Shown in pieces: positions 2,231 through 57,722 of a DNA stretch of 64,000 nucleotides. Every line of letters begins with the position of its first letter. Position 1 is the stretch's first letter. The stretch is from a virus (Duplodnaviria > Heunggongvirae > Uroviricota > Caudoviricetes). The position numbers and the translations under genes are program-made. The stretch spans positions 1 through 64,000 of IMG/VR virus record IMGVR_UViG_2974574300_000001. One strand, 5' to 3'. The notes under the pieces were generated by a model. The model saw only the letters and a list, made by a program, of their open reading frames with translations. It was not told the origin of the DNA and did no database searches.

Positions 2231-2237
2231 AATTAAT

Positions 2238-2643: not shown

Positions 2644-2712
2644 AATTTAGGAGAGAAGCGATTGCTCACCGATTTGTAAGGTGCAAGTCCTTAGCCTGAA
2701 TAGAAATTAAAT

Positions 2713-2800: not shown

Positions 2801-2805
2801 ATAAA

Positions 2806-3310: not shown

Positions 3311-3386
3311 GGAAGTGTAGCAGAATGGTGATGCGGCAGACTTTTAATCTGACAGGCGATGGGTTCGAATCCCTCCACTTCTACCA
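3311..3386 (+). tRNA. tRNA-Lys (anticodon TTT)
   Basis: acceptor GGAAGTG/CACTTCT, anticodon loop CTTTTAA, T-loop TTCGAAT, CCA. Confidence 0.65.
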
Positions 3387-3390
3387 ATAT

Positions 3391-3467
3391 GGTTCAGTCG
3401 CAGATAAGGTAATGCAAGGGTCTCATAAGCCCTATGAATGTGGGTTCGATTCCCATCTGAACCTCCA
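3391..3467 (+). tRNA. tRNA-Met or tRNA-Ile2 (anticodon CAT)
   Basis: acceptor GGTTCAG/CTGAACC, anticodon stem AGGGT/GCCCT loop CTCATAA, T-arm GTGGG-TTCGATT-CCCAT, CCA. Confidence 0.7.
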
Positions 3468-3469
3468 AT

Positions 3470-3544
3470 TGTGGGTTAGCATAAATGGTAATGCAAACGG
3501 CTGATAACCGTTAGAAGAGGGTTCGATACCCTCACCTACAACCA
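3470..3544 (+). tRNA. tRNA-Ile (anticodon GAT)
   Basis: acceptor TGTGGGT/ACCTACA, anticodon stem AACGG/CCGTT loop CTGATAA, T-arm GAGGG-TTCGATA-CCCTC, CCA. Confidence 0.7.
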
Positions 3545-3559
3545 ATTTCAATAAAGTTG

Positions 3560-3588
3560 TTGACATTGAGATGTGACTACTTTATAGT
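3560..3588 (+). promoter_or_regulatory. sigma70-like promoter (TTGACA-17-TATAGT) inside tRNA array
   Basis: TTGACA 3560-3565, 17 nt spacer, TATAGT 3583-3588. Confidence 0.6.
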
Positions 3589-3880
3589 AACTAAAATACT
3601 TCAGAATATGTATAATTCAAACACCAATACATGAGCGTTAGACGTAACACAATGTGGGGAAATTTGTTGTACATATTCTGAATAGTTTTCGTTGCGTAGC
3701 GTCTATTTTGCAAATTTAAAATAAATGCAAACGACAATGTTTTTCTGGCAGTAGCTTGATAGGCTAAACACCAGTGAGGTCTTCCAATCCCTCATCAAAG
3801 AATTTGGCGTACTAGCCACGGTATGATTAATAAGGTGGGCATCTTTAAGGGCTTTCTAAGAGAGTCTTTAAAGATAATTA

Positions 3881-3962
3881 CGGGGCGTATCTCAGCGGTC
3901 TTCTAAACCGCCGTTAACCGAGTAAGTGGAGTATGCGGGTTCGAGTCCTGCCGCCTCGACCA
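3881..3962 (+). tRNA. non-canonical tRNA-like gene (anticodon-like hairpin with TCT, no clear D-arm)
   Basis: acceptor CGGGGCG/CGCCTCG, T-arm GCGGG-TTCGAGT-CCTGC, CCA; only a 5 bp/7 nt hairpin GCGGT-CTTCTAA-ACCGC placed where the D-arm should be, followed by 23 nt extra region. Confidence 0.45.
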
Positions 3963-4104
3963 ATTAGTTAGCAGATTACTTAGACGACCTAAGCGGGTCT
4001 TCCTGTAGGGAGGTGGTCTGTATCTCATGTTTTCCAGAACATGTAAATAATCTGAGAAGGGGCTTTACAGTGTTGAGATAATACGGTAAGCTTCGAATTA
4101 TAGT

Positions 4105-4187
4105 ATGGGACGATGTTAAGACTCTAAGGCATGAGCAACGGCTTCCAACACCGTTTCAAAGGGGTTCAACTCCTCCGTCCCATGCCA
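4105..4187 (+). tRNA. non-canonical tRNA-like gene (aberrant D region; anticodon uncertain, possibly CCA)
   Basis: perfect 7 bp acceptor ATGGGAC/GTCCCAT, T-loop TTCAACT, CCA; 26 nt between acceptor and candidate anticodon hairpin ACGGC-TTCCAAC-ACCGT. Confidence 0.45.
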
Positions 4188-4200
4188 AAGTCTTATTAGG

Positions 4201-4288
4201 GGTAGGTAGCGGCTAATGGTAGCCAAACTGTCTTGAAAACAGTTGCCACTGTAGAGATACGGTGAGGGTTCGACTCCTTTACTTACCG
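4201..4288 (+). tRNA. tRNA-Ser (anticodon TGA), type II
   Basis: acceptor GGTAGGT/ACTTACC, 3 bp D-stem, anticodon stem ACTGT/ACAGT loop CTTGAAA, long variable arm, T-loop TTCGACT; CCA not fully encoded. Confidence 0.7.
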
Positions 4289-4545
4289 CCTAATAAGATT
4301 TAAAGCCAAGCTTCATTCGGATGTTGCTTTGGTATCCCTCGTGTATTGTCGTACACACTGATAAAACACCTAGTAGGTGTCACGGAGAAGAGATAATATC
4401 AAGCTCTCCAAAGGTTCTAGTCACCGGATTAAACAAGACTATGCAAAGACCTTTTTAGGTCTTTTTAGAGGGCTTCTAAGGTTATTACAGCTTGTTGTGG
4501 AACCTTGTTGCTTAGGTTCTTAGAAGTTCTCTAAAAAGATTTAAT

Positions 4546-4623
4546 GGGAGATTGACGGTAATTGGTAAACCTACCTCGCTTAGAACGAGGTGTTTGAGGG
4601 TTCGAATCCCTTGTCTCCTACCA
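4546..4623 (+). tRNA. tRNA with anticodon TAG (Leu by anticodon) but short variable arm
   Basis: acceptor GGGAGAT/GTCTCCT, anticodon stem CCTCG/CGAGG loop CTTAGAA, 5 nt variable loop, T-arm GAGGG-TTCGAAT-CCCTT, CCA. Confidence 0.6.
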
Positions 4624-4630
4624 AATTAAT

Positions 4631-4706
4631 GCAGGTGTAGCAAAATGGTTATGCGGCTGACTCTTAATCAGTAAGACGATGGGTTCAATTCCCTCCACCT
4701 GTACCA
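4631..4706 (+). tRNA. tRNA-Lys (anticodon CTT)
   Basis: acceptor GCAGGTG/CACCTGT, anticodon loop CTCTTAA, T-loop TTCAATT, CCA; paralog of 3311-3386. Confidence 0.6.
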
Positions 4707-4712
4707 AACATT

Positions 4713-4788
4713 GGGGATGTAGTTTACATGGTTAAAACATAAGTTTTGCAAACTTGGGAACTGAGTTCAATTCTCAGTGACTCCACCA
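4713..4788 (+). tRNA. tRNA-Ala (anticodon TGC)
   Basis: G3:U70 in acceptor, anticodon stem TAAGT/ACTTG loop TTTGCAA, T-arm CTGAG-TTCAATT-CTCAG, CCA. Confidence 0.6.
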
Positions 4789-4794
4789 ATTAGT

Positions 4795-4869
4795 GCATCC
4801 ATAGTTTAAACGGGAAAATTACAGTCTTCCAAACTGAGGTTGAGGGTTCGATTCCCTCTGGATGCTCCA
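4795..4869 (+). tRNA. tRNA-Trp (anticodon CCA)
   Basis: acceptor GCATCCA/TGGATGC, anticodon loop CTTCCAA, T-arm GAGGG-TTCGATT-CCCTC, CCA. Confidence 0.7.
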
Positions 4870-4875
4870 AACAAT

Positions 4876-4952
4876 GCTGCTTTCGTATAATTGGCTATTA
4901 CACATCCCTTGTAAGGATGGAAATGCAGGTTCGAGTCCTGTGAGCAGCACCA
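4876..4952 (+). tRNA. tRNA-Thr (anticodon TGT)
   Basis: acceptor GCTGCTT/GAGCAGC, anticodon stem CATCC/GGATG loop CTTGTAA, T-arm GCAGG-TTCGAGT-CCTGT, CCA. Confidence 0.7.
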
Positions 4953-5047
4953 ATTCAGAGGTCAAGTGAAAGACCGCTGGTGTCAACTGAAGACCGTAAC
5001 AAATTCCACGGAGTTGAGTTAGCGGCACAACTTCAGACCTCTTTCAC

Positions 5048-5122
5048 ACTCGCTTAGTTTATATGGTAAAACATCACCCTTACAAGATGAAGAAAAAGGT
5101 TCAAGTCCTTTAGTGAGTACCA
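5048..5122 (+). tRNA. tRNA-Val (anticodon TAC)
   Basis: acceptor ACTCGCT/AGTGAGT, D-stem GTTT/AAAC, anticodon loop CTTACAA, T-arm AAAGG-TTCAAGT-CCTTT, CCA. Confidence 0.65.
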
Positions 5123-5123
5123 T

Positions 5124-5202
5124 GTTCCAGTATCCCAATTGGCAGAGAGGCCAGACTTAAAATCTGTGTTATGTATCGGTTCGAATCCGATATGGAGTAC
5201 CA
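5124..5202 (+). tRNA. tRNA with anticodon TAA (Leu by anticodon), short variable arm
   Basis: acceptor GTTCCAG/ATGGAGT (6 of 7 pairs), anticodon stem CCAGA/TCTGT loop CTTAAAA, T-arm ATCGG-TTCGAAT-CCGAT, CCA. Confidence 0.5.
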
Positions 5203-5207
5203 ATTTT

Positions 5208-5283
5208 AGCGGTATAGCATAACTGGCAATGCAGCAGTCTCTGAAGCTGTCCTATTAAGGTTCAAATCCTTATGCCGCTGCCA
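5208..5283 (+). tRNA. tRNA-Gln (anticodon CTG)
   Basis: acceptor AGCGGTA/TGCCGCT, anticodon loop CTCTGAA, T-arm TAAGG-TTCAAAT-CCTTA, CCA. Confidence 0.6.
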
Positions 5284-5314
5284 CTTCTAAGGGTTCTTAC
5301 GAGAGTCCTTAAAT

Positions 5315-5390
5315 GTGGCCTTATCATAAACGGTAATGACCCATGCTGTGAACATGGTCTATACGGGTTCAAATCCCGTAGGTCACCCCA
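5315..5390 (+). tRNA. tRNA-His (anticodon GTG)
   Basis: acceptor GTGGCCT/AGGTCAC, discriminator C, anticodon stem CCATG/CATGG loop CTGTGAA, T-arm ACGGG-TTCAAAT-CCCGT, CCA. Confidence 0.7.
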
Positions 5391-5396
5391 ATTTAT

Positions 5397-5472
5397 AGTC
5401 CAAGTAGCTTATATGGTTAAAGCGCGTGTCTGAAAAACATGAGAAGAGGGTTCAAATCCCACTGGACTACCA
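5397..5472 (+). tRNA. tRNA-Phe (anticodon GAA)
   Basis: D-stem GCTT/AAGC, anticodon stem CGTGT/ACATG loop CTGAAAA, T-loop TTCAAAT, CCA. Confidence 0.65.
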
Positions 5473-5489
5473 ATTTTCAAAGGTGCTTA

Positions 5490-6224
5490 ATGAAAGAGAT
5501 GACAGGACAAGGTAAGGAGATTTTTAATCTCTTAAAAACCGGTAAAGGGTTTTCTAACCCACTTATTACTGGTGCAGTAGTTCTCGGTGGAACCGTAGCT
5601 GCCTCTACATCACTTGTAAGCTCTATTAGCTCTGTAACAGACCCTACAATGAAGGAGAAGCTTGTTGCTGCTGGACTCACAACAGTCCTTCTAAACAGCT
5701 TTACAACAAGCCTGACAAGCACTACAGCAACTACTAAGACCCTAACAGACTATGGTCAAAAGTCTATTGATGAGTTTTCATCACGTATGCAGGTAGCAAA
5801 GGGGTATTCCAATGTTATGGGTGCAGCAGGAGAACAAGTTGGTTGTACACCATTTAGTGGTATTATGGGTGTTGCTACAGAGTATGGTCAGCAAGCTATT
5901 GACACGATTAACAGCACACTAGACAGTGTTAACGGTGTGTTAAGTGACTTACAAGACGCTATTGATAAGGGTCTTGATACTGTTTCTGATTTAGCTAACC
6001 AAGCTGTTAGCAAGATTAATGAAGGTATCTCAAAGATTACAGCTTATGCAGATGAAGTTGTGCAGATGATTGAAGAAGAAGCTGCCCTTATTGCAGAGTA
6101 CCTTAAAACGAATATCAATGGGTTCTTAGCAGGTATCTTACCAGACTGGTTTGATGATGCTTGGAAAACTGGTGTAATCGACACTATTGCAACACCAGAA
6201 ATGAAGAACGCATTACAGAAATAA
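5490..6224 (+). CDS. hypothetical protein (Ser/Thr-rich N-terminal half)
   Basis: ORF track 5439-6224 trimmed to first ATG after tRNA-Phe; AGGTG RBS. Confidence 0.5.
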   Translation: MKEMTGQGKEIFNLLKTGKGFSNPLITGAVVLGGTVAASTSLVSSISSVTDPTMKEKLVAAGLTTVLLNSFTTSLTSTTATTKTLTDYGQKSIDEFSSRMQVAKGYSNVMGAAGEQVGCTPFSGIMGVATEYGQQAIDTINSTLDSVNGVLSDLQDAIDKGLDTVSDLANQAVSKINEGISKITAYADEVVQMIEEEAALIAEYLKTNINGFLAGILPDWFDDAWKTGVIDTIATPEMKNALQK

Positions 6225-6225
6225 T

Positions 6226-6318
6226 GGAAGATTAACCCTAAAAGGTAAGGGAGCAGTTTGCTAAACTGCCAGTAGCTGAGAAATCGGTGTACCAGTTCAA
6301 GTCTGGTATCTTCCTCCA
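6226..6318 (+). tRNA. tRNA-Ser (anticodon GCT), type II
   Basis: perfect acceptor GGAAGAT/ATCTTCC, 3 bp D-stem CCC/GGG, anticodon stem GCAGT/ACTGC loop TTGCTAA, long variable arm, T-arm ACCAG-TTCAAGT-CTGGT, CCA. Confidence 0.75.
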
Positions 6319-6322
6319 ATCT

Positions 6323-6398
6323 GAATCCGTGACAGAAATGGATATGTGCCTGTCTGCAAAACAGGTTTATAAGGGTTCAAGTCCCTTCGGATTCTCCA
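6323..6398 (+). tRNA. tRNA-Cys (anticodon GCA)
   Basis: acceptor GAATCCG/CGGATTC, anticodon stem CCTGT/ACAGG loop CTGCAAA, T-arm AAGGG-TTCAAGT-CCCTT, CCA. Confidence 0.75.
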
Positions 6399-6435
6399 AG
6401 TTATTTTACTCTCTCTCAATTAAAATAATAATAAT

Positions 6436-12128: not shown

Positions 12129-12506
12129 ATGGCATATCAAGGTTTTACTAAGTTAGGTAACAGAGAACCTCTGAATGATATCATTCTTTGGGAACAGGTT
12201 ACCCCAACAGGTCACTCTCGCAAAGAGTACACTCCGGTTGCTTCAACAGAATACCGTGTAGGTGAAGTTCTGAAAGCAGATGGTACTAAGGTTACAGCAG
12301 GGCAAGAAGCTCAGGCTGATTCAGTATGTATCGTTAACTTTTATGCAGACCTGCAACTGTCTTATCATGGTCAGTTGAAAGTTGTTGGTATCCACCGTGA
12401 TGCAGAACTGAAAGACATGCTGACTCTTGAATCAAGCGTTGATGCTGATGCAGTCAAGGCAGCTCTAGCCGCTAAAGGTATTGATTTCGTACCAACTGGC
12501 CTGTAA
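12129..12506 (+). CDS. hypothetical head protein (possible decoration protein)
   Basis: 125 aa ORF between protease and capsid genes, AAGGA RBS. Confidence 0.45.
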   Translation: MAYQGFTKLGNREPLNDIILWEQVTPTGHSRKEYTPVASTEYRVGEVLKADGTKVTAGQEAQADSVCIVNFYADLQLSYHGQLKVVGIHRDAELKDMLTLESSVDADAVKAALAAKGIDFVPTGL

Positions 12507-12539
12507 TAACAATAATAAGACATTCTGGAGAATTTTACA

Positions 12540-13616
12540 ATGTTGACTAATTCTGAAAAAAGCAGATTTTTCCTTGCTGACCTGACTGGTGAAGTCCAGT
12601 CTATCCCAAATACTTATGGGTATATTTCCAACTTAGGTCTGTTCCGTTCAGCACCAATCACCCAAACTACTTTCCTTATGGACTTGACTGATTGGGATGT
12701 TAGCTTGCTTGATGCGGTAGACCGTGATAGCCGTAAAGCAGAGACTAGCGCACCTGAGCGTGTTCGTCAAATCAGCTTCCCAATGATGTATTTCAAAGAA
12801 GTTGAAAGCATTACTCCTGATGAGATTCAGGGTGTACGTCAGCCAGGCACTGCAAACGAACTGACTACTGAAGCTGTAGTACGTGCTAAGAAGCTGATGA
12901 AGATTCGTACCAAGTTCGATATTACTCGTGAGTTCCTGTTTATGCAAGCTCTGAAGGGTAAAGTTGTCGATGCTCGTGGTACTCTGTACGCTGACCTGTA
13001 CAAGCAGTTCGACGTTGAGAAGAAGACTGTTTACTTCGACCTTGACAATCCTAATGCTGACATCGACGCTTCTATCGAAGAACTGCGTATGCACATGGAA
13101 GACGAAGCTAAGACTGGCACTGTAATCAACGGTGAAGAAATTCACGTAGTTGTTGACCGTGTATTCTTCAGCAAACTGGTTAAGCATCCTAAGATTCGTG
13201 ACGCTTATCTTGCACAGCAGACTCCACTGGCTTGGCAACAGATTACTGGTTCTCTGAGAACTGGTGGTACTGACGGCGTTCAGGCTCATATGAACACCTT
13301 CTACTACGGTGGTGTTAAGTTTGTCCAGTACAACGGTAAGTTCAAAGACAAGCGTGGTAAGGTTCACACTCTGGTGAGCATTGATAGTGTAGCAGCAACT
13401 GTTGGTGTTGGTCATGCCTTCCCTAACGTATCTATGCTGGGTGAAGCTAACAACATCTTCGAAGTGGCATATGGCCCATGTCCTAAGATGGGTTACGCAA
13501 ATACACTTGGTCAGGAACTGTACGTATTCGAATACGAAAAGACCGTGACGAAGGTATTGACTTCGAAGCTCACTCTTACATGCTGCCATACTGCACTCGT
13601 CCTCAGTTGCTGGTAG
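12540..13616 (+). CDS. major capsid protein (putative)
   Basis: 358 aa ORF after protease/scaffold, strong RBS, high codon-usage regularity; assignment by position. Confidence 0.6.
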   Translation: MLTNSEKSRFFLADLTGEVQSIPNTYGYISNLGLFRSAPITQTTFLMDLTDWDVSLLDAVDRDSRKAETSAPERVRQISFPMMYFKEVESITPDEIQGVRQPGTANELTTEAVVRAKKLMKIRTKFDITREFLFMQALKGKVVDARGTLYADLYKQFDVEKKTVYFDLDNPNADIDASIEELRMHMEDEAKTGTVINGEEIHVVVDRVFFSKLVKHPKIRDAYLAQQTPLAWQQITGSLRTGGTDGVQAHMNTFYYGGVKFVQYNGKFKDKRGKVHTLVSIDSVAATVGVGHAFPNVSMLGEANNIFEVAYGPCPKMGYANTLGQELYVFEYEKTVTKVLTSKLTLTCCHTALVLSCW

Positions 13617-13661
13617 ATGTTCGCGCTGACGCTAAAGGTAGCTAATAAACTTAGGAGGGTT

Positions 13662-14114
13662 ATGAATGTGTTATACAGCGACCCAGCCAATAACCCTCTT
13701 GATAGAGTAAGAATCCTCTGCACAGACACTAATAATGATGAAATTCTTATTGAGCAGTCTGTGCTAGAGTGGTTCTATCTAGAATCTGGAAAGGATGAAA
13801 AGAAAGCAGCCATCAAAGCTCTTAAATATTTACTCTTTCAAGTAGCCAAGATGGGAGATGAGAAGGTTGGTGGTGTTTATTTACGTAACTCTTCCAGATT
13901 CAAGTCTCTGAAAGCTGTTTATGACGACCTTGTTAAAAGCTCTGTTTCAGGACTACCCTATGCAGGTGGTATTAATCAGTGTGATATTGACATGCGTCGT
14001 CAGAATCCTTGCTCTGTCAAGAAATACACAGAATATGGTGATGCTGCCAGATACGAAGGCAGAGATTACTGCAACCGTGTTAATGGCGTATTTATTATCG
14101 AGCGAGATGAATAA
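13662..14114 (+). CDS. hypothetical protein (head-tail region)
   Basis: ORF trimmed to ATG with AGGAGG RBS. Confidence 0.45.
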   Translation: MNVLYSDPANNPLDRVRILCTDTNNDEILIEQSVLEWFYLESGKDEKKAAIKALKYLLFQVAKMGDEKVGGVYLRNSSRFKSLKAVYDDLVKSSVSGLPYAGGINQCDIDMRRQNPCSVKKYTEYGDAARYEGRDYCNRVNGVFIIERDE

Positions 14115-15568: not shown

Positions 15569-16921
15569 ATGTGGAATCCAATTGTTAATGTAGATATTAC
15601 ATTGAACACCGCAGGAACTACAAGAGAAGGTTTTGGTTTGCCACTATTCTTAGCTTCAACAGATAACTTTGAAGAAAGAGTGCGTGGTTACACTTCCTTA
15701 ACTGAAGTTGCTGAAGATTTCGATGAAAATACTGCTGCATATAAAGCTGCTAAACAACTTTGGAGTCAGACTCCTAAAGTAACTCAGCTTTATATCGGTA
15801 GACGCGCTATGCAGTACACTGTATCAATTCCTGATGCCGTTACCGAAAGTACAGACTACTCAATTACTGTAGCTGCTGGCGGTGGAATTTCTCAACCATA
15901 CCAGTACACAGCACAAAGTTCAGACACTGCTGAGGTAGTGTTACAACAGTTTAAAACACAGATTGAAGCTGACCCAACAATCAAAGATAAGGTTTCTGTG
16001 AATGTAACTGGTAGCAATGGCTCTGCCACAATGATTATTACCAAAGCTGGTGATAATGACTTTGTGAAAGTAACAACCACAGCACAGACTGTATATATTG
16101 CAAGTACAACTGCCGATACAGCAGCAACTGCTCTGGCAGCCATTGAAGCTTATTCTACTGACTGGTATTTCATTGCAGCAGAAGACAGAACTCAACAGTT
16201 TGTCTTAGCAATGGCTTCTGAGATTCAGGCTCGCAAGAAAATCTTCTTTACAGCTAACTCCGATGTAACAGCCCTGCAAGGTACAGAATTAGCCAGTGCA
16301 AATGATGTTCCAGCACAGCTTGCTAAGAATATGTACACTCGTACAGTTTGCTTGTGGCATCACGCAGCAGCAGAAGATTACCCAGAGATGGCATACATTG
16401 CTTATGGTGCTCCATATGATGCAGGTTCAATTGCTTGGGGTAATACTCAGCTAACTGGTGTAGCAGCTTCTCTACAACCATCTAATCAGAGACCTCTGAC
16501 AAGTATTCAGAAGTCTGCTTTAGATGTACGTCACTGTAACTTTATTGACCTTGATGGTGGTGTTCCAGTGGTTCGTAGAGGGATTACTTCTGGTGGGGAA
16601 TGGATTGATATCGTCCGTGGTGTTGACTGGTTAGAATCAGACCTGAAAACTTCTCTGAGAGACTTGCTAATTAACCAGAAGGGTGGTAAGATTACTTATG
16701 ATGATACTGGTATTACCCGTATTCGTCAAGTCATTGAAACCTCTCTGCAAAGAGCAGTCAACAGAAACTTCCTGTCATCTTACACAGTTAATGTTCCTAA
16801 AGCCTCTCAAGTTGCTTTAGCAGACAAGAAAGCTCGTATCCTGAAAGATGTTACCTTCGCAGGTATCTTAGCAGGGGCTATCTTGGATGTTGACTTGAAA
16901 GGTACAGTGGCTTACGAATAA
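15569..16921 (+). CDS. tail sheath or major tail protein (putative)
   Basis: 450 aa ORF followed by 148 aa tube-like gene, chaperone pair and tape measure. Confidence 0.5.
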   Translation: MWNPIVNVDITLNTAGTTREGFGLPLFLASTDNFEERVRGYTSLTEVAEDFDENTAAYKAAKQLWSQTPKVTQLYIGRRAMQYTVSIPDAVTESTDYSITVAAGGGISQPYQYTAQSSDTAEVVLQQFKTQIEADPTIKDKVSVNVTGSNGSATMIITKAGDNDFVKVTTTAQTVYIASTTADTAATALAAIEAYSTDWYFIAAEDRTQQFVLAMASEIQARKKIFFTANSDVTALQGTELASANDVPAQLAKNMYTRTVCLWHHAAAEDYPEMAYIAYGAPYDAGSIAWGNTQLTGVAASLQPSNQRPLTSIQKSALDVRHCNFIDLDGGVPVVRRGITSGGEWIDIVRGVDWLESDLKTSLRDLLINQKGGKITYDDTGITRIRQVIETSLQRAVNRNFLSSYTVNVPKASQVALADKKARILKDVTFAGILAGAILDVDLKGTVAYE

Positions 16922-16936
16922 TAGAGGTAAATTGGA

Positions 16937-17383
16937 ATGGCTATGTATCAGCAATATTCCCCTAAAGACGTTGTATGTAGCTGGAATGGTATTGCCATTG
17001 AAGGCTTTGCCCCAGACTCATTCTTGCGTCTACAGAGAACATCACCACTTGTGACACCAGTTGTTGGTGCAGGTGGTCAGGTTGCTCTGACAAGAAATGC
17101 AGACAAGACAGGTACTATTGAGATTGAGCTAATGCAGACTTCTCTCTCTAACCAGATGCTTTCTGCAATTCAAGCTAAACAAGACAATATGGAACTTGAA
17201 GTAGATATCTCTTCTAACTTCGTAATCTACGACCCATCAGGCTCTGTTCTGGCAACTGGTATTAATGCTTGGTTGCAGGAGTTGCCACAGATTGAACTTG
17301 GTCGTGACCAGAACTCTAAAACTTGGATTTTTGGTTGTGAGAAGCTAGACTATACTTCTACAATTCCAGCGTCAAGTGTTTAA
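16937..17383 (+). CDS. tail tube protein (putative)
   Basis: 148 aa ORF after sheath candidate, followed by terminator. Confidence 0.5.
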   Translation: MAMYQQYSPKDVVCSWNGIAIEGFAPDSFLRLQRTSPLVTPVVGAGGQVALTRNADKTGTIEIELMQTSLSNQMLSAIQAKQDNMELEVDISSNFVIYDPSGSVLATGINAWLQELPQIELGRDQNSKTWIFGCEKLDYTSTIPASSV

Positions 17384-17395
17384 TAAATCCTATAA

Positions 17396-17428
17396 GGGGG
17401 AGACTTTAAAAGGTCTTCCCCTTTTTTG
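17396..17428 (+). terminator. rho-independent terminator
   Basis: GGGGGAGAC-TTTAAAAG-GTCTTCCCC hairpin followed by TTTTTTG. Confidence 0.7.
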
Positions 17429-17456
17429 TTTCTTTTAAAAGTATTAAGGAATCACA

Positions 17457-17855
17457 ATGAAAACAGAATTTAGAGTAATTAATGGTAAGAAAGTAAATAT
17501 CGTTCTGCTTGGGGCAAGAGATGGTATTAAGATGTCTATGAAGTTGGGTAAAATTGTTGTCCCAACCTTTGCACAGATGCTATCAAGTCTGACTGACAAG
17601 GGTAAGAAAGAAGCTCCGATGGTTCCATTTAAAGAACTTGTTGAAGCTTGTTTTGACAGAATTGAAGAGATTAACCTTGAAGAGATGGCAACCCTGTTAT
17701 TTCAAGGGGCAACTGTTGATGACTTCCCACTTAATATTGATACGTACTTCCAAGCAAACTATGGTGAGTTCATTGATTACTTAGCATTTGCGCTGGAGGC
17801 AAACTTCGGAAGTTTTTTCGAAGCAAGCATTTTCAAAAGCCTAACTTCTCAGTAA
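17457..17855 (+). CDS. tail assembly chaperone (gpG-like)
   Basis: 132 aa acidic ORF directly upstream of tape measure; TTTTTTC slippery heptamer near 3' end. Confidence 0.55.
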   Translation: MKTEFRVINGKKVNIVLLGARDGIKMSMKLGKIVVPTFAQMLSSLTDKGKKEAPMVPFKELVEACFDRIEEINLEEMATLLFQGATVDDFPLNIDTYFQANYGEFIDYLAFALEANFGSFFEASIFKSLTSQ

Positions 17856-17857
17856 AC

Positions 17858-18096
17858 ATGGGTAATACTCTACAGACACCACTGACTGATGCTGCTGTAG
17901 AGGCAACCTATGAAGAAGCAGACGAGATGAAATTTGTGCTTGCTATTTATGGTATGGAAGGGTGTAAAGAAACACTTGACCAACTCTTTGCTATGACATT
18001 CTCTGATTTATTATCATTGAGACAATTTCTTGAAATTCAGAGGTCGTATAAAGAGGAAATTGCTTACAACGAACTTAGAAGAGCAGGAAAAATGTA

Positions 18097-18097: not shown

Positions 18098-26113
<8,016 letters not shown>

Positions 26114-32952: not shown

Positions 32953-33282
32953 TTAGTCTGCCAACCTTAAATTGAAATTAACACCAAATTTTTCACATAC
33001 TTCCAACATATACTCAAGGGAAACATTACCAGTGAGGTGGATTATGTTGGATACACGAGCCTGAGAGATACCGCAAATTTTAGCAACTTGTTCTTGAGAA
33101 AGACCTCTGGATTTAATCTCTCTCTTAAAACGATGTGCAACGAAGTCTCTCATTTCGTCTACATCCATTGGACAAATATAACTCTCCATTTCAGCCTCTC
33201 TATCAGCCTCCCAATCATCTTGTGGGGCATAAGGGTCAAAAACATCATTCATCTTTCTTCTTCCGTTTGCGTGAAGTGTCAA
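32953..33282 (-). CDS. helix-turn-helix DNA-binding protein (XRE-like)
   Basis: RGLSQEQVAKICGISQARVSNI HTH motif. Confidence 0.55.
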   Translation of the reverse strand: MTLHANGRRKMNDVFDPYAPQDDWEADREAEMESYICPMDVDEMRDFVAHRFKREIKSRGLSQEQVAKICGISQARVSNIIHLTGNVSLEYMLEVCEKFGVNFNLRLAD

Positions 33283-36500: not shown

Positions 36501-37016
36501 TCAACTTAGTTTTGCAAACTCTCCGTGGAGTTTAATAGCAGCTTCACAGTAAGCTTTATGGGCTTCTTCTTCCGTTGTGTATGTTCCTATATGTATAGTC
36601 TTGCCATTATGGTTAATCTGGGCTATCCACTTACCAGACTTGCTTCTACTTGTACCTTTTAAGTTTTTTGATGTTCTGGGTTGTCTCCTATTAGACATGT
36701 TCTGCTCTTTTGTGGCCTCTCTTAGATTGTCCCAAGCGTTATTCAAACCATCTCCATCTTTGTGGTCAATGTGTTTATCAGGCCACTTACCTGTCATCCA
36801 GAACCAAGCAATTCGGTGATTACCTGTCCTGTATCCTAAAATCTGTGTGTGCATATACACACCAGACCTTGTGCGCTTAATTGCTCCGGCTTGGCTTCCA
36901 ATGACCACCCTACTACTATGTGGAGGTCTCCCAATCCATGTTAAGACCCCTGTTTCGGGGTCATAATCTAACCAAGACTTTAACTGTTCATGTGTGAATC
37001 CACAATCTCTCATCAA
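36501..37016 (-). CDS. HNH homing endonuclease with AP2-like DNA-binding domain
   Basis: HIDHKDGDGLNNAWDNLREAT HNH motif and C-terminal GKWIAQI...GTYTTEEEAHKAY AP2-like domain; paralogs at 47411 and 60835. Confidence 0.75.
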   Translation of the reverse strand: MMRDCGFTHEQLKSWLDYDPETGVLTWIGRPPHSSRVVIGSQAGAIKRTRSGVYMHTQILGYRTGNHRIAWFWMTGKWPDKHIDHKDGDGLNNAWDNLREATKEQNMSNRRQPRTSKNLKGTSRSKSGKWIAQINHNGKTIHIGTYTTEEEAHKAYCEAAIKLHGEFAKLS

Positions 37017-37567
37017 TGTACCTCATACCAGCTCTTACCAACTTTACCAGTACCAGTTACAAGCGTTTCCTCCTTAAGACCTAAGTTTCTTGATGCCTGA
37101 CCATACATCCAGTCAATTACTGCTTTAACATCCTGTGTCATCTCTTCTGGGCACTCCCAACTATTCTCGTCGTGGTATGCTAAAAGCAATCTAGCACCAA
37201 TAGCTGGTTTTCGACCATTCAGCTTTGTAAGACCCTCTTCACAAGCCCTTCTACAAGCAAGGTTGATAGCTTCATTCTGAACCTGACTTTCCGAACCCAT
37301 GAGCAAGTAATTTAAAAGTTTGTGCGGAGATTTACACCACAACCATGCACCTGCTACCTTTACAAAACCACCCTTAGAGATTGCAGCAGTCTTACCAAAC
37401 ACCTCTTCAAGAGCCTTCTTAGTGGCTTTGAAGTCTGCTTCCAAATTATCTATCAACTTTTTAATCTTAGGAAGGCGTACAAAGTAAGTTTGCTTAGTTA
37501 AAGCACCCTCTTCAGTAGTTGCAGCTTTAATCGTCTTAGCAAACTTCTCGTCACCTGCCCCAAACAA
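37013..37567 (-). CDS. DNA polymerase (family A, T7-like), 3' exon
   Basis: begins with FGAGDEK continuing motif B; contains motif C LLAYHDE. Confidence 0.8.
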   Translation of the reverse strand: MFGAGDEKFAKTIKAATTEEGALTKQTYFVRLPKIKKLIDNLEADFKATKKALEEVFGKTAAISKGGFVKVAGAWLWCKSPHKLLNYLLMGSESQVQNEAINLACRRACEEGLTKLNGRKPAIGARLLLAYHDENSWECPEEMTQDVKAVIDWMYGQASRNLGLKEETLVTGTGKVGKSWYEVH

Positions 37568-37569
37568 TA

Positions 37570-38370
37570 CATCTGGTCAATACACTCGCAAGGTGTACCA
37601 GTTCTCTTATGAACTTCTCCGCATTTCTACGGAGTGTCGGACTATATCACGTAGCAGTGCTGCTACCGTTGCGCTTGGGATGGTCATTAGCTTACCACCC
37701 TACTCTACTCAGTTCATACGTTAAGTATGCTTTTCGATAGTCTCTGAACGTTTCTCTGTTAGGAATCTCTATAATCATGTTATTTACTCAGGTAGTCAAT
37801 TGCCCTTTGCATATTATCAACGCTATCTGCAAGCAACCCCAAAGCTCTATTGCAATTGTGGCACAACATACCTCTTACTTTTCCGGTTTTGTGGTCATGG
37901 TCAACGACAAGTTTAGCCTTATGCCGTGAGCTATTCATGATAAAACCTTCACCGCCACAAATTTGACATTTGTAATCACAGTTACGAAGTAGGGTTTCAA
38001 CCTCTTCTCTTTCTAAACCATATGTTCTCAGGTAGTAATTCTTAACTCTACCTTTCTCTCCGCAATGCGAAGAACAATAAACTTGCCTTGCTGTTCTAGG
38101 CATGAACACCTTCTCACAGCTAGGACATTTCTTAGTAAGAACCCTATGTTCTGCTCTTCTGTCAAATTTTAATACGCAACTTCTGCACCGTTTTTGATTG
38201 TATTGGTATGGTTTAAACTCTGCACCACACTCAGTACACAATCTCTCTTTGTAACCTGCCATTGTCTCTCTCCTTTGTTTTAGGAGTCCTAACAGAGACT
38301 TCGCTGCTGATTACCATGTCTTTACAGACTTAGGCTTCCAGCAATTCACAACGTTTTACATGCGCCACTG
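37570..38370 (-). mobile_element. group I intron (putative) in DNA polymerase gene
   Basis: about 800 nt separating polymerase motif B halves (IYA.. | ..FGAGDEK); boundaries compatible with exon ending in U and intron ending in G; carries HNH ORF. Confidence 0.6.
37780..38262 (-). CDS. intron-encoded HNH endonuclease (endonuclease VII-like with zinc ribbon)
   Basis: DHDHKTGKVRGMLCHNCNRALG HNH/EndoVII signature plus CxxC pairs. Confidence 0.75.
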   Translation of the reverse strand: MAGYKERLCTECGAEFKPYQYNQKRCRSCVLKFDRRAEHRVLTKKCPSCEKVFMPRTARQVYCSSHCGEKGRVKNYYLRTYGLEREEVETLLRNCDYKCQICGGEGFIMNSSRHKAKLVVDHDHKTGKVRGMLCHNCNRALGLLADSVDNMQRAIDYLSK

Positions 38371-40513
38371 ACGCATAAATACCATTCTTGGCTTTCTTAC
38401 GACCCTTACTAATTTCTTGAAGAAGGTTTGTATCCTGAGTAGCTCGACAAGTCAAGATATCTTCCTCTTTATTAAGGCTGAAGTAGATACTATTTAAAGT
38501 ATGTGCATCAGTTCCTGAGTACACCACGTACAAGTCATTTTCCGAATCATAATGCAAATACTTGTCAATCTCTGGGTTTAGATACTGGTCAAAATGTTTA
38601 CAATAGTATCTACCATCCTCTTGTTTGACAAACTCAACCTCTTCTTTACCCTCTGTCACTGCTTTGGTGAACTCTTTATCACCCATAAAGTTACACAGCA
38701 GTACAAGTTGCGCGCTATTCATATCTGCTGAAACAATATTAGTCCCTTCTTCACAAGTCCACACCTCCCGCATAGGTGCTCCATAGACAGCAGCACCAGA
38801 TGGTACGTTTACAATACCATATTGTGTCATACGCCCAGTTGAAGTACCAAACACCATTGCACCAGCACTAAGGCGACCATCAGGACGAATCTGGTTCAAC
38901 CAACCTTTTTCATCATCCTTTGAGTTCTCAATAGTTCTGCGTCTGTGCATCAAAGTATAGTATTTAGCAATCTTCTGTCCAAGCTCACCTTCAATCGTAT
39001 CATAAGATGATTCAGTAAGTTTTGGCGAAGTACGGATTAAGCAAGGCTCAAGCAAATCTGTGTACTTCTTCACAGACCAGTTATGCTCAATGTACTGGAC
39101 ACCTTCATGTTCAACATAACTCAAACCACACCGCTCAACCATTTCCTGCCACTTAGGATGTTTTGTAATCATCTTTTTATTGTCTTTGAAACGACAAACT
39201 TTGACAGGACGACCATCTGAGTCTTTCTTGTAGTTCCAGTCATCTGGAATCCAACCAACTGATTTCAAGTAGTCTTTAACAACTGCTACCTGAGTCATAC
39301 GAGAAACTTCGAACTCAATTGGTGTATATGGTGCATCAATCAAACCTGTGTAGCGACTTGACTCAAGTTCAAAGTGGTTAACGACGTGGCTGTTATAGTA
39401 CTTCACAGTTTTGACTGTTTTTACTGGTTTCCAGTCTTTGCATTTCTTACCAATCTTTGCGTTCAACTCATTGCAAATTGCACGAGCATCCTTCATTGCT
39501 ACAAAGCCTTCCTTGTACTCTTCACCAGTTACAGTGTTGGTTGGTGTATAGCAATTTCTCTTTTCAATGTTAAAAATCTTTGTAGTTGGCTTACCAAATG
39601 GCTTGATTTCATAAGTTTGCATCTCACCGTTACGTACCTGCTGACGATACTTTGTTTTAGGGTACTTGGTAATTCTCTTCAGTCCATCTGCATGACCAAA
39701 TGTTTCAACATACTCATTCCAAGCTTTTGCAAACTCTTCTCCAGTGACTTTACCTTTGGTCTTAATAGTTGGAGGAAGATGTGGTTCAACCTCTGAAGCA
39801 AGCTCATTAGTCAACTTGTCAAGTTCCTTCACATGGAACTCCATAAGCTCTTTATCAGCTTTCCAACCATTGATAGCTTGTTGACTCATCCAGAAAGATG
39901 TTTCTTTAGCTCGCATGTAGGTTTCATAAGTGTCTATGCCACACTTCTTAAGCTTGAGATACTCATTATCAAGTGCCCGTTTAGTTTTGGCGTTAATACG
40001 GATATCTTCTACAACACGAGTGAAGATTTCTGCATTCCACACACCCCAATGCTCAATCTCTGGTTTACGAACACCAACACGAGCACCCCATGCAGCCAAA
40101 CCATGAGCACCTTTATAACCCTTTGGAGTTGGTCTATCCATCCACTGAACACGAGACTGGATAAGAGAATCCTGAAAGAAATTACTCCACGGCTTACATT
40201 TTGGATTATCAAAGTTCCATAAATCCGGTGCAATGTGATTGAAGACCCACCAGTCATAACCGAGGCCGTTATGGATACAAAGTCGTTTTGCCTTTAACGC
40301 AAACTCAACACCTTCACGTAAACCACCCTTAATGTACTTAGTGTACTTGTGACCGAGGATAGGCTCATCTGTAAAGACCCATACAGGTGGCTCTTCATCG
40401 TCAGATTTATAGTCTGCAAAGGCCATTACGTGAACTTTAGTGAACTCAAGGAGTAAACCATCAGTTTCTGTATCACCAACCAAATGTAAGTTTTTAAAAT
40501 CTACGTTTTCCAT
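38330..40513 (-). CDS. DNA polymerase (family A, T7-like), 5' exon with 3'-5' exonuclease domain
   Basis: exo motif GDTETDG, HNGLGYDW, and motif B start RKKAKNGIYA at the ORF end; reading frame continues into intron to stop at 38330. Confidence 0.85.
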   Translation of the reverse strand: MENVDFKNLHLVGDTETDGLLLEFTKVHVMAFADYKSDDEEPPVWVFTDEPILGHKYTKYIKGGLREGVEFALKAKRLCIHNGLGYDWWVFNHIAPDLWNFDNPKCKPWSNFFQDSLIQSRVQWMDRPTPKGYKGAHGLAAWGARVGVRKPEIEHWGVWNAEIFTRVVEDIRINAKTKRALDNEYLKLKKCGIDTYETYMRAKETSFWMSQQAINGWKADKELMEFHVKELDKLTNELASEVEPHLPPTIKTKGKVTGEEFAKAWNEYVETFGHADGLKRITKYPKTKYRQQVRNGEMQTYEIKPFGKPTTKIFNIEKRNCYTPTNTVTGEEYKEGFVAMKDARAICNELNAKIGKKCKDWKPVKTVKTVKYYNSHVVNHFELESSRYTGLIDAPYTPIEFEVSRMTQVAVVKDYLKSVGWIPDDWNYKKDSDGRPVKVCRFKDNKKMITKHPKWQEMVERCGLSYVEHEGVQYIEHNWSVKKYTDLLEPCLIRTSPKLTESSYDTIEGELGQKIAKYYTLMHRRRTIENSKDDEKGWLNQIRPDGRLSAGAMVFGTSTGRMTQYGIVNVPSGAAVYGAPMREVWTCEEGTNIVSADMNSAQLVLLCNFMGDKEFTKAVTEGKEEVEFVKQEDGRYYCKHFDQYLNPEIDKYLHYDSENDLYVVYSGTDAHTLNSIYFSLNKEEDILTCRATQDTNLLQEISKGRKKAKNGIYASVAHVKRCELLEA

Positions 40514-40709
40514 TTTTACTCCCTCTAAAATCATTAACCCCATACATTACTGCAAAAAATTATAAAAAGCAAGTTGACAATACACTTGACAAGGTGTTAA
40601 TCTTTGCGAAGTGGGTTTTTACTTAAAAGGTTACTTAACAGTTTAACTATACAGATACTTTAAAACTCTTAAAAGATTATTTAATAGCTTTTAAAAAGCT
40701 TTAAAGTAT

Positions 40710-40726
40710 AACGTATAGAATACGTT
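40710..40726. promoter_or_regulatory. palindromic operator-like site in divergent intergenic region
   Basis: AACGTAT-AGA-ATACGTT inverted repeat between divergent replication operons. Confidence 0.4.
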
Positions 40727-40769
40727 AAGATAAAAGATTAAACTTAATAGTTACTTAAAAGAGGCTTAC

Positions 40770-41192
40770 ATGCAGAAAATGTTTGTTCACCCAGACATAG
40801 CTGACTTTGTTAGAGCTTTGCAGAAGTTGGAAGAACTTGACATTGCTGCTCAACGGGAATATGCTCACCATCACAGGAGAATGGTTGATATACAACATGA
40901 AATAGAGTTGTCTGAAAACTATGAAGATGACTTAAAATGCTCTGTATTTGAGCATATGAAAGATGTTGCTACAGCGAGACGTAAAGCTAAAGACACAGTT
41001 GCTTTACTAGATTCTCTTAAAAAGAGGTTGCAAAGTGGTACAGACCTGTGTAATCTAGCGTCACTGATTAACGATGTTGAAACTTCTTGGGATAGGCACT
41101 ATTATCCACGTTCTGAAAAGACACTTGACTTTTCTTCATCCGAAAACTTAAAATGTTCTAGAAAGAAACTTAACCAACTGAGAGAGAAATAA
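40770..41192 (+). CDS. hypothetical protein
   Basis: ORF. Confidence 0.45.
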   Translation: MQKMFVHPDIADFVRALQKLEELDIAAQREYAHHHRRMVDIQHEIELSENYEDDLKCSVFEHMKDVATARRKAKDTVALLDSLKKRLQSGTDLCNLASLINDVETSWDRHYYPRSEKTLDFSSSENLKCSRKKLNQLREK

Positions 41193-41193
41193 T

Positions 41194-41994
41194 ATGAATA
41201 TCGATGTAGAAAAGATGCTTGAAGAAAAAGGTATTGACGAAGCGTTCTTAATCAATGCTGTAGAAAGCATGGCTATGATTCTTCGTGGTAACAACTACAC
41301 AGAACAGTTTATGCCTGCAAGCTATAACTTGCCTGAAGACAAGTCTGATAACGGTGCTTTTGCAGAACAGGTTAACATGATGTTGACAGACACTACACTT
41401 GCTCTAGCATCTATTGCTGTTGGTGTTGATGCACTTGCTGAGTTTATTTTTTATGAAATGCAAAAGAATGACTATATCAGGATGTCAGACGAAGATAAGG
41501 AACTGTTACTGACTAAGGATACTGATTTCCTTATTGACATGCTTATCTCATCAACAAGTGTTGTTATGGCTGCGCTTGAGAAGCGTATGGAAGAAAAGCT
41601 GTCACGATATGAAAAGCTTGATTGGGGCGTAGAAGAATTAAGCCCACGAATCAAAGAGATTATCCAGCAAACTAAAAAGTCTTTGGAAGAAGCTGTTGAA
41701 AATGACTCTGTAGCTGATATAGAGCCACTTCAGGTGAAAGTTGCGCTAATGATTCCAGCTATCTCTACGATGATGAATATCGTTGCACTAATCCAACTTT
41801 CACAGATGATGGGTATGAGTATTGAGTTCATTGAGGAGATGACTGGTGGTGTTAGTATGCAAGCAATCAATGATGTTTTGGTGAATATTGGTGCTTCAAT
41901 CATTGAAGAGAAACTACGCATTAACTTCGGTGATGATTTTGTGAAGCAACTCTCAGCTATGGCTGAAAAAGAGTCTGCTGAGCAACTGCACTAA
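41194..41994 (+). CDS. hypothetical protein
   Basis: ORF. Confidence 0.45.
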   Translation: MNIDVEKMLEEKGIDEAFLINAVESMAMILRGNNYTEQFMPASYNLPEDKSDNGAFAEQVNMMLTDTTLALASIAVGVDALAEFIFYEMQKNDYIRMSDEDKELLLTKDTDFLIDMLISSTSVVMAALEKRMEEKLSRYEKLDWGVEELSPRIKEIIQQTKKSLEEAVENDSVADIEPLQVKVALMIPAISTMMNIVALIQLSQMMGMSIEFIEEMTGGVSMQAINDVLVNIGASIIEEKLRINFGDDFVKQLSAMAEKESAEQLH

Positions 41995-42011
41995 GCCTTT
42001 ATAAATCTTAC

Positions 42012-42037
42012 AAGCCTCCTTAGTTGGGGGCTTTTTA
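42012..42037 (+). terminator. rho-independent terminator
   Basis: AAGCCTCC-TTAGTT-GGGGGCTT hairpin followed by TTTTT. Confidence 0.55.
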
Positions 42038-42055
42038 GTAATTAATGGAGATAAA

Positions 42056-57090: not shown

Positions 57091-57648
57091 ATGAATTACG
57101 AACTAATATATAATGCAATTATTAAGAAGGCACATTCTGAAAGGGGTGTGCCTCTTACATACTACAAATGTCAAGGTAAGGGTTATGAAAGACACCATAT
57201 CATACCAGTGTGTCTAGGTGGCGATAAAATTAGTGGAGATAATATTGCTTTACTTACACCTAGAGAGCATTATGTAGCTCATAAATTACTGGTTAAGATG
57301 TATCCAAACAATCATAAGTTATGGTTTGCATGGAACAGGTTAGCTCATGATGGCCTAGATAGGAAAATATCATCCAGAGACTATGAAAAGGTAAGGGCTT
57401 TGAACTCGAAAGCTTCATCCATTGTGAATAAAGGTAGGGTTTTCACTGAAGAACATCGAAGACGATTAGGAGAATCTCAAATAGGTAATACAAAATCAAA
57501 AGGTTGTAAAAGGTCTATAGAAACAAGGAAGAGGATGTCAGAAGCCGGAAAAAAGCCAAAGAAAAAGAAAACTTGCCATCATTGTGGTATGACTGGTGGT
57601 GCTGGTAACATGACTCGATATCATTTTGACAATTGTAAGAAAAAATAA
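57091..57648 (+). CDS. HNH endonuclease with NUMOD3-like repeats
   Basis: ERHHIIPVCLGGDKISGDNIALLTPREHYVAH HNH motif; C-terminal basic repeats and CHHCG zinc finger. Confidence 0.55.
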   Translation: MNYELIYNAIIKKAHSERGVPLTYYKCQGKGYERHHIIPVCLGGDKISGDNIALLTPREHYVAHKLLVKMYPNNHKLWFAWNRLAHDGLDRKISSRDYEKVRALNSKASSIVNKGRVFTEEHRRRLGESQIGNTKSKGCKRSIETRKRMSEAGKKPKKKKTCHHCGMTGGAGNMTRYHFDNCKKK

Positions 57649-57722
57649 CCTTATGTAAAACTTGACAAGGCGGTGTAGGTCTTGATAGGCTTACATCACC
57701 TTTTTATTGGTGAGGTAACTAT

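Follow-up and report, generated by a model that had tools for sequence, protein, structure and literature searches.

What does the short, AT-rich gap between the two divergent replication operons of Felix O1-like phages do? We analysed a stretch of 64,000 nucleotides (positions 1–64,000 of the IMG/VR record IMGVR_UViG_2974574300_000001, Caudoviricetes; hereafter the window), in which a gap at 40514–40769 separates a family A DNA polymerase gene on the minus strand from a gene for a 140-aa protein on the plus strand. Each of the two is the first gene of a divergent transcription unit, and the 140-aa gene is followed by a homologue of a "minor tail protein", a dNMP kinase and a gp4-like primase-helicase. 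Over 5 kb around the gap, the sequence matches 258 phage records, nearly all of them Felixounavirus, at 90–98% identity; for the 401 bases centred on the gap, 213 of 257 records reach at least 95%. Judged by its sequence, the window belongs to a Felixounavirus, and its gap corresponds, with 98–99% identity, to that between ORF96 (DNA polymerase) and ORF97 of phage Felix O1.

Four transcription units have been described for Felix O1, and divergent early promoters were assumed to lie in the ORF96/ORF97 gap, where the authors recognised no sequences of obvious sigma-70 type (Whichard et al. 2010, PMC3185647). The same genome paper leaves transcription timing, the read-through of the many terminators and the start of replication unexplained (PMC3185647). 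Felix O1-like phages are widely used in typing, biocontrol and therapy. Here we place both promoters, correct the polymerase start and describe a module of phased octamers that ties the rightward leader to the terminal repeats of the genome. Overall, we consider it probable that the locus combines divergent early promoters with an octamer platform on the DNA. Its divergent-promoter part is by itself very likely, whereas the DNA-bound protein platform, suggested by sequence patterns, is put forward tentatively.

Predicted divergent promoters

The orthologous gaps of Suspvirus, Mooglevirus, Kolesnikvirus, Yersinia phage P778 and Pectobacterium phage Arno162 were compared with that of the window. 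Promoter conservation was read from an alignment of nine sequences from three genera (alignment A1), and the distant genera were inspected by eye. The divergent gene arrangement is kept in all orthologous gaps. In three genera the gap also keeps a length of 256–259 bp, and it is 79–87% identical between genera, compared with 53–66% at the third codon positions of the polymerase and 140-aa genes. The invariant columns of A1 amount to 100% in the paired −35 elements, 89% from the second TTGACA to the −10 element, 76% in the 17 initially transcribed nucleotides and 77% in the octamer array, and to only 29% in the leftward spacer. Among 25 sequences of the genus itself, the positions that differ lie between the two TTGACA hexamers, between the octamers and in the polymerase leader. 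The left half of the gap contains the following features:

40513–40511 and 40519–40525, minus strand: polymerase start, ATG with ribosome-binding site GAGGGAG (sequence; SUSP1, Sf13 and Moogle annotation; A1 columns invariant)
40544–40549, minus strand: predicted −10 element of the leftward promoter, TAATGT (A1 alignment)
40567–40572, minus strand: predicted −35 element of the leftward promoter, TTGCTT (invariant, 17 nt from the −10 element)
40574–40579, plus strand: predicted −35 element of the rightward promoter, TTGACA (sigma-70 score, conservation in Ounavirinae, annotation in MZ726791)
40583–40596, plus strand: CACTTGACAAGGTG box with the second TTGACA (in the rightward spacer; invariant in A1)
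40595–40603, plus strand: predicted extended −10 element TGtTAATCT (18 nt after the TTGACA at 40574)
40604–40620, plus strand: discriminator and initially transcribed sequence TTGCGAAGTGGGTTTTT (13 of 17 columns invariant across three genera)

Scored with a rough sigma-70 matrix over the ~640,000 positions of the window, the rightward promoter reaches 11.3 and ranks 30th. A-tracts at 40554–40568, upstream of its −35 element, resemble an UP element, and its transcription start, read off the −10 element, is predicted near 40610. The TTGACA at 40574 is conserved in all Ounavirinae compared. In Moogle, the counterpart of the −10 element reads TGgTAGTCT, and in the distant genera a single TTGACA is followed at 17–18 nt by TAATGT, TACATT or TAGGCT. 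The pattern of TTGACA, a spacer of 17–18 nt and TAnnnT is kept in Suspvirus, Mooglevirus, Kolesnikvirus, P778 and Arno162. The leftward promoter, for which a start near 40537 is predicted, uses neither TTGACA. Its −35 element is invariant and its −10 element keeps TAnnGT in three genera with a variable middle (TAGGGT, TAGTGT), while its spacer is always 17 nt long although the sequence varies. Each strand thus carries −35 and −10 elements at a spacing of 16–18 bp, in which key hexamer positions and spacer length are kept and the spacer sequence is not.

An initial annotation of this DNA, made from the sequence alone, had read the region as a probable bidirectional promoter or operator. Its promoter proposal is borne out by the sequence, the phylogenetic footprint and the logic of the locus, and ORF96 and ORF97 of Felix O1 have both been found transcribed by RT-PCR (PMC3185647). 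The motifs it listed are all present, among them the two TTGACA hexamers at 40574 and 40586, a pair reached by 0 of 2000 dinucleotide-preserving shuffles of the gap. The AT-rich gap itself is real (26% G+C over 40514–40769), but the proposed extent of 226 bp (40544–40769) needs correction, as its left border stems from the longest open reading frame (ORF), which begins at ATG 40543. Three in-frame ATGs are available to the polymerase (40543, 40534 and 40513), and a ribosome-binding site is found only before the last, with GAGGGAG 5 nt upstream. ATG 40513 is also the annotated start in SUSP1, Sf13 and Moogle and lies downstream of the predicted leftward promoter. A leftward start near 40537 would exclude ATG 40543 and fits a start codon at 40513. 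Because the polymerase starts at 40513, the true gap is 40514–40769, or 256 bp.

The initial annotation made no choice between the two TTGACA hexamers. Only the one at 40574 has a usable −10 element; the second TTGACA (40586) was ruled out as a −35 element, since no −10 element lies 16–18 nt away. The CACTTGACAAGGTG box that contains it has five matches in the window at up to 2 mismatches, compared with 0.7 expected, and the double TTGACA module (TTGACA-aagcac-TTGACAAGGT) also precedes Felix O1 ORF41. A TAGAAT inside the loop of the hairpin described below was rejected as the −10 element of a second promoter, as it has neither a −35 element nor a TG. Other promoter classes left little trace: matches to the MotA box WWWTGCTTYA at 11–13 bp upstream of TAnnnT number only three in the 64 kb, the locus holds one near-match (AAAAGCTTTA, a 12-nt spacer and TAGAAT at 40694), and the T4 late promoter consensus is absent from it.

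Two further promoters of the TTGACAAGG(T/C)G type occur elsewhere in the window, at 57662 (within 57626–57722; TTGACA, 18-nt spacer, TAGGCT) and at 36504 (within 36507–36470, minus strand; TTGACA, 17-nt spacer, TACCTT). These sites suggest that the extended −35 box may be typical of the early promoters of the phage.

A phased octamer array in the rightward leader

The rightward leader of ~160 nt contains about ten octamers of the form CTTWAHAG, mostly 10–13 nt apart and all oriented along transcription:

40622, plus strand: octamer CTTAAAAG, CTTWAHAG family
40634, plus strand: octamer CTTAACAG, CTTWAHAG family
40647, plus strand: octamer CTATACAG, CTTWAHAG family
40658, plus strand: octamer CTTTAAAA, CTTWAHAG family
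40668, plus strand: octamer CTTAAAAG, CTTWAHAG family
40680, plus strand: octamer TTTAATAG, CTTWAHAG family
40691, plus strand: octamer TTAAAAAG, CTTWAHAG family
40699, plus strand: octamer CTTTAAAG, CTTWAHAG family
40743, plus strand: octamer CTTAATAG, CTTWAHAG family
40754, plus strand: octamer CTTAAAAG, CTTWAHAG family, overlapping the ribosome-binding site
40622–40706, plus strand: array of eight octamers (8–13 nt spacing; octamers conserved, spacers variable)
40759–40764, plus strand: ribosome-binding site AAGAGG of the 140-aa gene, which starts at 40770 (sequence)

The tandem repeats noticed earlier belong here: TTACTTAA lies at 40619, 40631 and 40751, and words of the CTTTAAAG type, described as CTTTAAA(A)G repeats, at 40658, 40688–40699 and 40699. 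Across the window TTACTTAA occurs eight times on the plus strand and never on the minus strand. Three copies in the gap were reached by 1 of 2000 shuffles; six CTTWAHAG (shuffle mean 0.17) and nine YTWWAHAG (shuffle mean 0.9) were reached by none, figures that are optimistic for the octamers because the pattern was defined after the data had been seen. The array, which includes the quasi-palindrome AGCTTTTAAAAAGCT (40687–40701), is the densest in the window, with at most two strict copies per strand in any other 250-nt stretch, and the leader is the top plus-strand octamer cluster of the whole Felix O1 genome.

The octamer pattern persists even in the distant genera, whose leaders have diverged too far for alignment. 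In eight phages from at least five lineages, the first octamer follows the −35 element by 42–48 nt, the spacing is 11–13 nt, and the leaders contain 4–8 octamers compared with 0.1–0.4 expected in shuffles. Orthologous octamers are conserved and the 3–5 nt between them vary; within the octamer, the sixth position is A, C or T even between orthologues, and variants in Kolesnikvirus include CTTCTAAG and CTTCTATAG.

The leader is also exceptional as a duplex. Positions 40620–40779 form the least stable 160 bp of the 64 kb (z = 4.5; z = 4.6 for 100 bp), and the Felix O1 equivalent is the lowest-G+C 200 nt of the whole genome. As RNA, the whole leader is not unusually structured (z = −1.46), with only two local hairpins in the consensus fold. 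It contains no small ORF. Rfam matched nothing at the locus even at a permissive threshold, with nothing near the gathering score, at which only tRNAs were found in the window as a whole. Consensus patterns for IHF, Fis, DnaA, CRP and GATC have no match in 40500–40790. Tandem Repeats Finder calls no array at the leader because the copies are too degenerate. A scan of IMG/VR with a three-octamer pattern was discarded, as it returned only unrelated perfect 12–14-nt minisatellites and coding repeats.

Octamers in the terminal repeats and in a sister leader

Similar octamers fill a second kind of site. In Felix O1, positions 12306–13927 form a 1.6-kb stretch free of ORFs between the ends of two convergent units, bounded on both sides by intrinsic terminators and packed with octamers of the CTTAACAG/CTGTTAAG type in both orientations at a period of 10–12 nt. 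It lies outside the window, and we found no description of such a stretch at the convergent junction in the literature searched. Phage phiEa104 has an equivalent ORF-free region (16472–17900) with octamers of the same family, and the stretch measures 1.4–1.6 kb across the two phages.

Phage I14.1 (PP892526) links this region to the genome ends. Direct terminal repeats have been reported for it by PhageTerm (PMC11737134); the 581 bp at one end of its record are identical to those at the other and correspond to Felix O1 ~12771–13350, the core of the ORF-free stretch. The most over-represented 8-mers of the 581-bp terminal repeat are TCTTAACA, CTTAACAA and CTTAACAG. With a matrix built on the terminal repeat alone, 40621–40780 emerges as the densest 160-nt stretch of the window, with six plus-strand matches compared with at most three elsewhere. 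The taxonomy line of PP892526 reads Tequintavirus, yet its sequence runs collinear with Felix O1 and shares 98.3% identity with the gap region.

A sister leader lies in the divergent ORF40/41 region of Felix O1 (21416–21664), in which the double TTGACA module reads TTGACAaagcacTTGACAAGGT and is located just upstream of the window start. The window itself begins within this leader:

1–118, plus strand: tail of the sister leader (Felix O1 ORF40/41 divergent region), with octamers, a hairpin and a ribosome-binding site

The hairpin of the sister leader is AGATATC-tttctg-GATATCT, and its ribosome-binding site is embedded in CTTATAAGAGG, itself an octamer. The homologue of ORF41 occupies 119–490 of the window.

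A palindrome with hairpin character

Between the eighth and ninth octamers lies a perfect palindrome:

40709–40727, plus strand: palindrome or hairpin TAACGTAT-AGA-ATACGTTA (perfect 8-3-8; 7-bp core kept in three genera)

The initial annotation had placed it at 40710–40726; it extends one base further on each side. Taken alone it is not significant, as an 8+8 palindrome with a 0–6 nt loop arises in 15% of shuffles. It occurs once in the window and is absent from the more distant genera. As a hairpin, it shows two compensated pairs, one (A-T to T-A) in Suspvirus and Mooglevirus, the other (C-G to T-A) in the Moogle group, and 90% of cells are paired compared with 11–61% when the partner is slid, a comparison that draws on few independent events.

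The phage also encodes a candidate regulator, a Cro/Xre-type protein in the leftward operon (32956–33282, minus strand; HTH_3, E = 6e-10; PHROG "transcriptional regulator"). Its recognition helix ISQ(A/S)RVSNI is invariant across genera, whereas both half-sites of the palindrome co-change in Mooglevirus, which mildly favours structure over operator. The palindrome thus exists as proposed, but as a single copy in the window, ~100 nt past the predicted start and at least as hairpin-like as operator-like, it leaves an operator function of the region doubtful.

A proposed role for the octamer leader

We propose that two host sigma-70-type promoters point away from each other, only 1 bp separating their −35 elements. 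The leftward one would give a transcript with a ~24-nt leader for the DNA polymerase operon, and the rightward promoter would drive the operon from the 140-aa gene through the dNMP kinase and the primase-helicase. This divergent early promoter role is well supported; as such it is nothing unusual, and earlier work had assumed it. The 160-bp rightward leader, in turn, would be a cis-acting module rather than a spacer, in which the octamer array may serve as a DNA platform for an oligomerising protein that also binds the octamers of the terminal repeats. Bound from about +12 onward, such a protein might modulate the rightward promoter, for instance by shut-off, as a roadblock or by keeping the very AT-rich DNA open. 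Recognition at the DNA level is favoured because the terminal-repeat copies lie beyond intrinsic terminators.

Several points weigh against this proposal. The leftward promoter is weak as a consensus match (score 5.2), and two other minus-strand candidates, TTATCT-N17-TATACT at 40733 and TTAAGA-N15-TATAGT at 40672 (the latter annotated in MZ726791), score slightly above it. We found no transcriptome of any Felixounavirus in the literature, nor any origin mapping or mention of the octamer words for Felix O1-like phages. The octamer pattern was defined only after inspection, and the leader octamers are all co-directional with transcription, which would equally fit a function at the RNA level. 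The octamers of Felixounavirus leaders are mostly CTTAAAAG whereas CTTAACA(G/A/T) dominates the terminal repeat, so that placing the two in the same family is our judgement, because the dominant words differ. Finally, no candidate octamer-binding protein emerged, the 140-aa product having no informative family or fold match.

If the octamers were recognised as RNA, a CUUWAHAG leader with a hairpin could recruit an RNA-binding factor of phage or host origin that controls terminator read-through, comparable to lambda N/nut, or the translation of the first gene or the stability of its message. The shared orientation of the octamers in this and the sister leader, the start of the array at about +12 in every genus, the overlap of the last octamer with the ribosome-binding site and the survival of hairpin pairing through two double changes all suit such a module, as does the terminator at ~42013–42044, without an obvious promoter before the dNMP kinase and primase-helicase genes; terminator read-through in Felix O1 is unexplained (Whichard et al., PMC3185647). 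We nevertheless consider it unlikely. The leader matches no Rfam family and is not unusually structured as a whole, boxA/boxB-like elements are absent, and the hairpins of the two leaders differ in sequence. The octamers also fill the terminal-repeat region beyond the terminators, which is probably untranscribed, and promoter-like sites within the first two genes could serve the genes downstream. The region was also initially raised as a possible replication origin. An origin composed of a promoter and an unwinding element, which needs no initiator gene in T4 and T7, would fit the locus, where the least stable 160-bp duplex of the window (in Felix O1, the 200 nt of lowest G+C) lies just past a strong conserved promoter, flanked by the polymerase operon on one side and the primase-helicase operon on the other. 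In this scenario a persistent R-loop, formed by the early rightward transcript in the easily melted octamer region, would serve the phage polymerase as primer for the leading strand, with the displaced strand receiving the T7-gp4-like primase-helicase. The cumulative GC skew does reach a local minimum at the gap, but we rejected it as origin evidence: it tracks the coding strand and carries no independent information because its sign changes at every coding-strand switch. The locus has neither initiator nor host-factor sites, the same promoter-plus-leader module recurs in the ORF40/41 region, individual octamers are conserved between variable spacers, beyond the needs of a mere unwinding element, and our literature search found no replication data for Felix O1-like phages; such an origin seems to us not very likely.

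We judge it quite unlikely that the 19-bp palindrome is the operator of the Cro/Xre-type protein, through which the leftward operon would feed back on the rightward operon by a roadblock. In its favour, sites bound by helix-turn-helix dimers typically have the size of this perfect 8-3-8 palindrome, a protein of that class is encoded by the phage (the HTH_3 match given above), and the homologue in phage Bas63 (gene 35) scores like an essential gene in PhageMaP (about −1.2). Against this, the single copy lies off the promoter without a second site in the window, the half-sites co-change in Mooglevirus under an invariant recognition helix, and the palindrome, not significant alone, is missing from distant genera. 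The plainest account would hold that nothing is present beyond two promoters, the repeats being residues of slippage or duplication in an AT-rich spacer whose only contribution would be curvature, UP-like activation or a leader left unstructured so that ribosomes can load. Phage early regions often have AT-rich upstream and leader sequences, and the failure of Tandem Repeats Finder to call an array points the same way. This account appears highly improbable given that 77% of the array columns are invariant across three genera with 53–66% third-position identity, that the same octamer and phase are rebuilt in genera with unalignable leaders, and that a spacing of 11–13 bp does not match the helical repeat on which planar curvature depends.

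The analysis supplies testable coordinates of the two early promoters of the replication module and marks out the phased octamers as a cis element that recurs across the subfamily, in early leaders as well as in terminal repeats. Should a single protein recognise the octamers in both places, gene expression would be tied to replication and to the handling of genome ends, and the protein would offer a handle for phage engineering. Were the octamers merely a feature of leader or spacer, the region would be an ordinary divergent promoter. A bolder form of the proposal, which we regard as very unlikely, has one oligomerising phage protein recognise the CTTWAHAG octamers and coat the 581-bp terminal repeats and the first 100–150 bp after the two major rightward early promoters, so that the region would be early promoter, early shut-off switch and protein-assisted unwinding start of replication at once. 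If true, a myovirus of Gram-negative hosts that carries terminal repeats would follow a nucleoprotein logic like that of phi29 p6.

Comparison with known systems

The arrangement is reminiscent of several characterised phage elements. The T4 origins oriF (uvsY) and oriG and the primary origin of T7 consist of a promoter followed by an AT-rich unwinding element. In the same way, a strong promoter here reads into the most easily melted DNA beside replication genes, in a phage with a family A polymerase and a gp4-like primase-helicase. T4 origins use MotA-dependent middle promoters and T7 uses promoters of its own polymerase, whereas the promoter of the candidate origin here is of the host sigma-70 type. 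The downstream element also differs, as it is a conserved phased repeat and more than AT-rich DNA.

Short repeats at genome ends have precedents. T7 reportedly carries the short repeats SRL and SRR, with the heptamer CCTAAAG, next to its terminal repeats, as Dunn and Studier are said to have described in 1983. The p6 protein of phi29 occupies binding arrays with a period of ~12 bp at the genome ends and at early promoters, one oligomerising protein serving both. The Felix O1-like octamers resemble them as short A/T-rich words ending in AAG, repeated every 10–13 bp at genome ends; we identified no p6-like gene. To our knowledge, the T7 repeats do not recur in promoter leaders.

In lambda PL-nutL-N and PR-nutR, too, an early promoter is separated by a cis element from the small gene that opens a long, terminator-containing operon. 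On the level of the element itself, there is little similarity. Neither sequence nor consensus fold revealed at the locus a boxA (CGCTCTTA-like) followed by a boxB hairpin, with nothing of the boxA consensus beyond CTCTTA at 40666–40671. The hairpin here has a stem of 7–8 bp and a 3-nt loop, compared with the 5-bp stem and GNRA-like pentaloop of lambda boxB. The two leaders carry different hairpins, and no N-like protein was identified. Iteron-type origins (lambda ori, plasmid iterons, P4 ori/crr) are built from several direct repeats of ~17–22 bp, or 8 bp in P4, to which the product of a neighbouring initiator gene binds. Repeats of 8 bp are present here, next to a 140-aa protein without a DNA-binding family or fold match, and the host-factor sites looked for at such origins (DnaA box, IHF, Fis and GATC clusters) are absent from 40500–40790. 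Cro/Xre operators usually comprise several palindromes over a promoter, whereas this locus has one site at about +100 plus a helix-turn-helix gene.

In MZ726791 (phage vB_EcoM_ASO1A), one promoter per strand is annotated in the gap. Its rightward −35 element is the same as ours, paired there with GTTAAT at 16 nt and here with TAATCT across an 18-nt spacer. Its leftward promoter is placed at 40672–40646, which the cross-genus footprint does not favour. Neither MZ726791 nor Whichard et al. (PMC3185647) mentions the octamer array, the hairpin or a link to the terminal repeats, and as far as the searchable literature shows, the octamer array appears to be undescribed.

Flanking genes and further observations

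The product of the 140-aa gene (40770–41189) has no Pfam match and belongs to a PHROG family without assigned function. It has only nine homologues, all in Ounavirinae, and a scan of IMG/VR with the protein returned near-identical phages only. Its AlphaFold model is a four-helix protein (pLDDT 72), for which Foldseek against the PDB gave generic helical hairpins only (E ≥ 0.2). In 201 of 298 phage records the protein reaches at least 99% identity, compared with 90–95% for the DNA around its gene, and it carries the invariant motif HRRMVD(I/V)QHEIELSE. The PhageMaP data for Bas63 are given per gene only, and gene 48, the homologue of the 140-aa gene, has no value.

The second gene of the rightward operon (41194–41991) is annotated as "minor tail protein" (PHROG 4251), although it belongs to the replication operon. 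The homologue in Bas63, gene 49, proved dispensable (PhageMaP fitness about +1), which makes the annotation doubtful. An intrinsic terminator (agcctcc-ttagtt-gggggct-ttttt, ~42013–42044) directly follows this gene, and the 61-nt gap before the dNMP kinase gene (41995–42055) contains no obvious promoter. The primase-helicase matches gp4-type profiles only.

The polymerase gene (37013–40513, minus strand) is split by an insert of ~0.8 kb. Residues 1–721 of the Felix O1 polymerase match 40535–38372 at 96% identity and residues 722–906 match 37570–37016 at only 78%. The insert holds an endonuclease VII-like ORF (37780–38262) and a sub-threshold match to a group I intron (RF00028, 38211–38347, 26 bits, E = 2.6e-4). 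The Felix O1 polymerase is a single uninterrupted 906-aa gene, while that of phage LinBro is split as in the window.

Near the left end of the window, a 471-aa protein (573–1985; DUF2828 and DUF7788; PHROG "RNA-binding protein") is encoded directly upstream of a tRNA cluster of ~21 genes (1989–6400).

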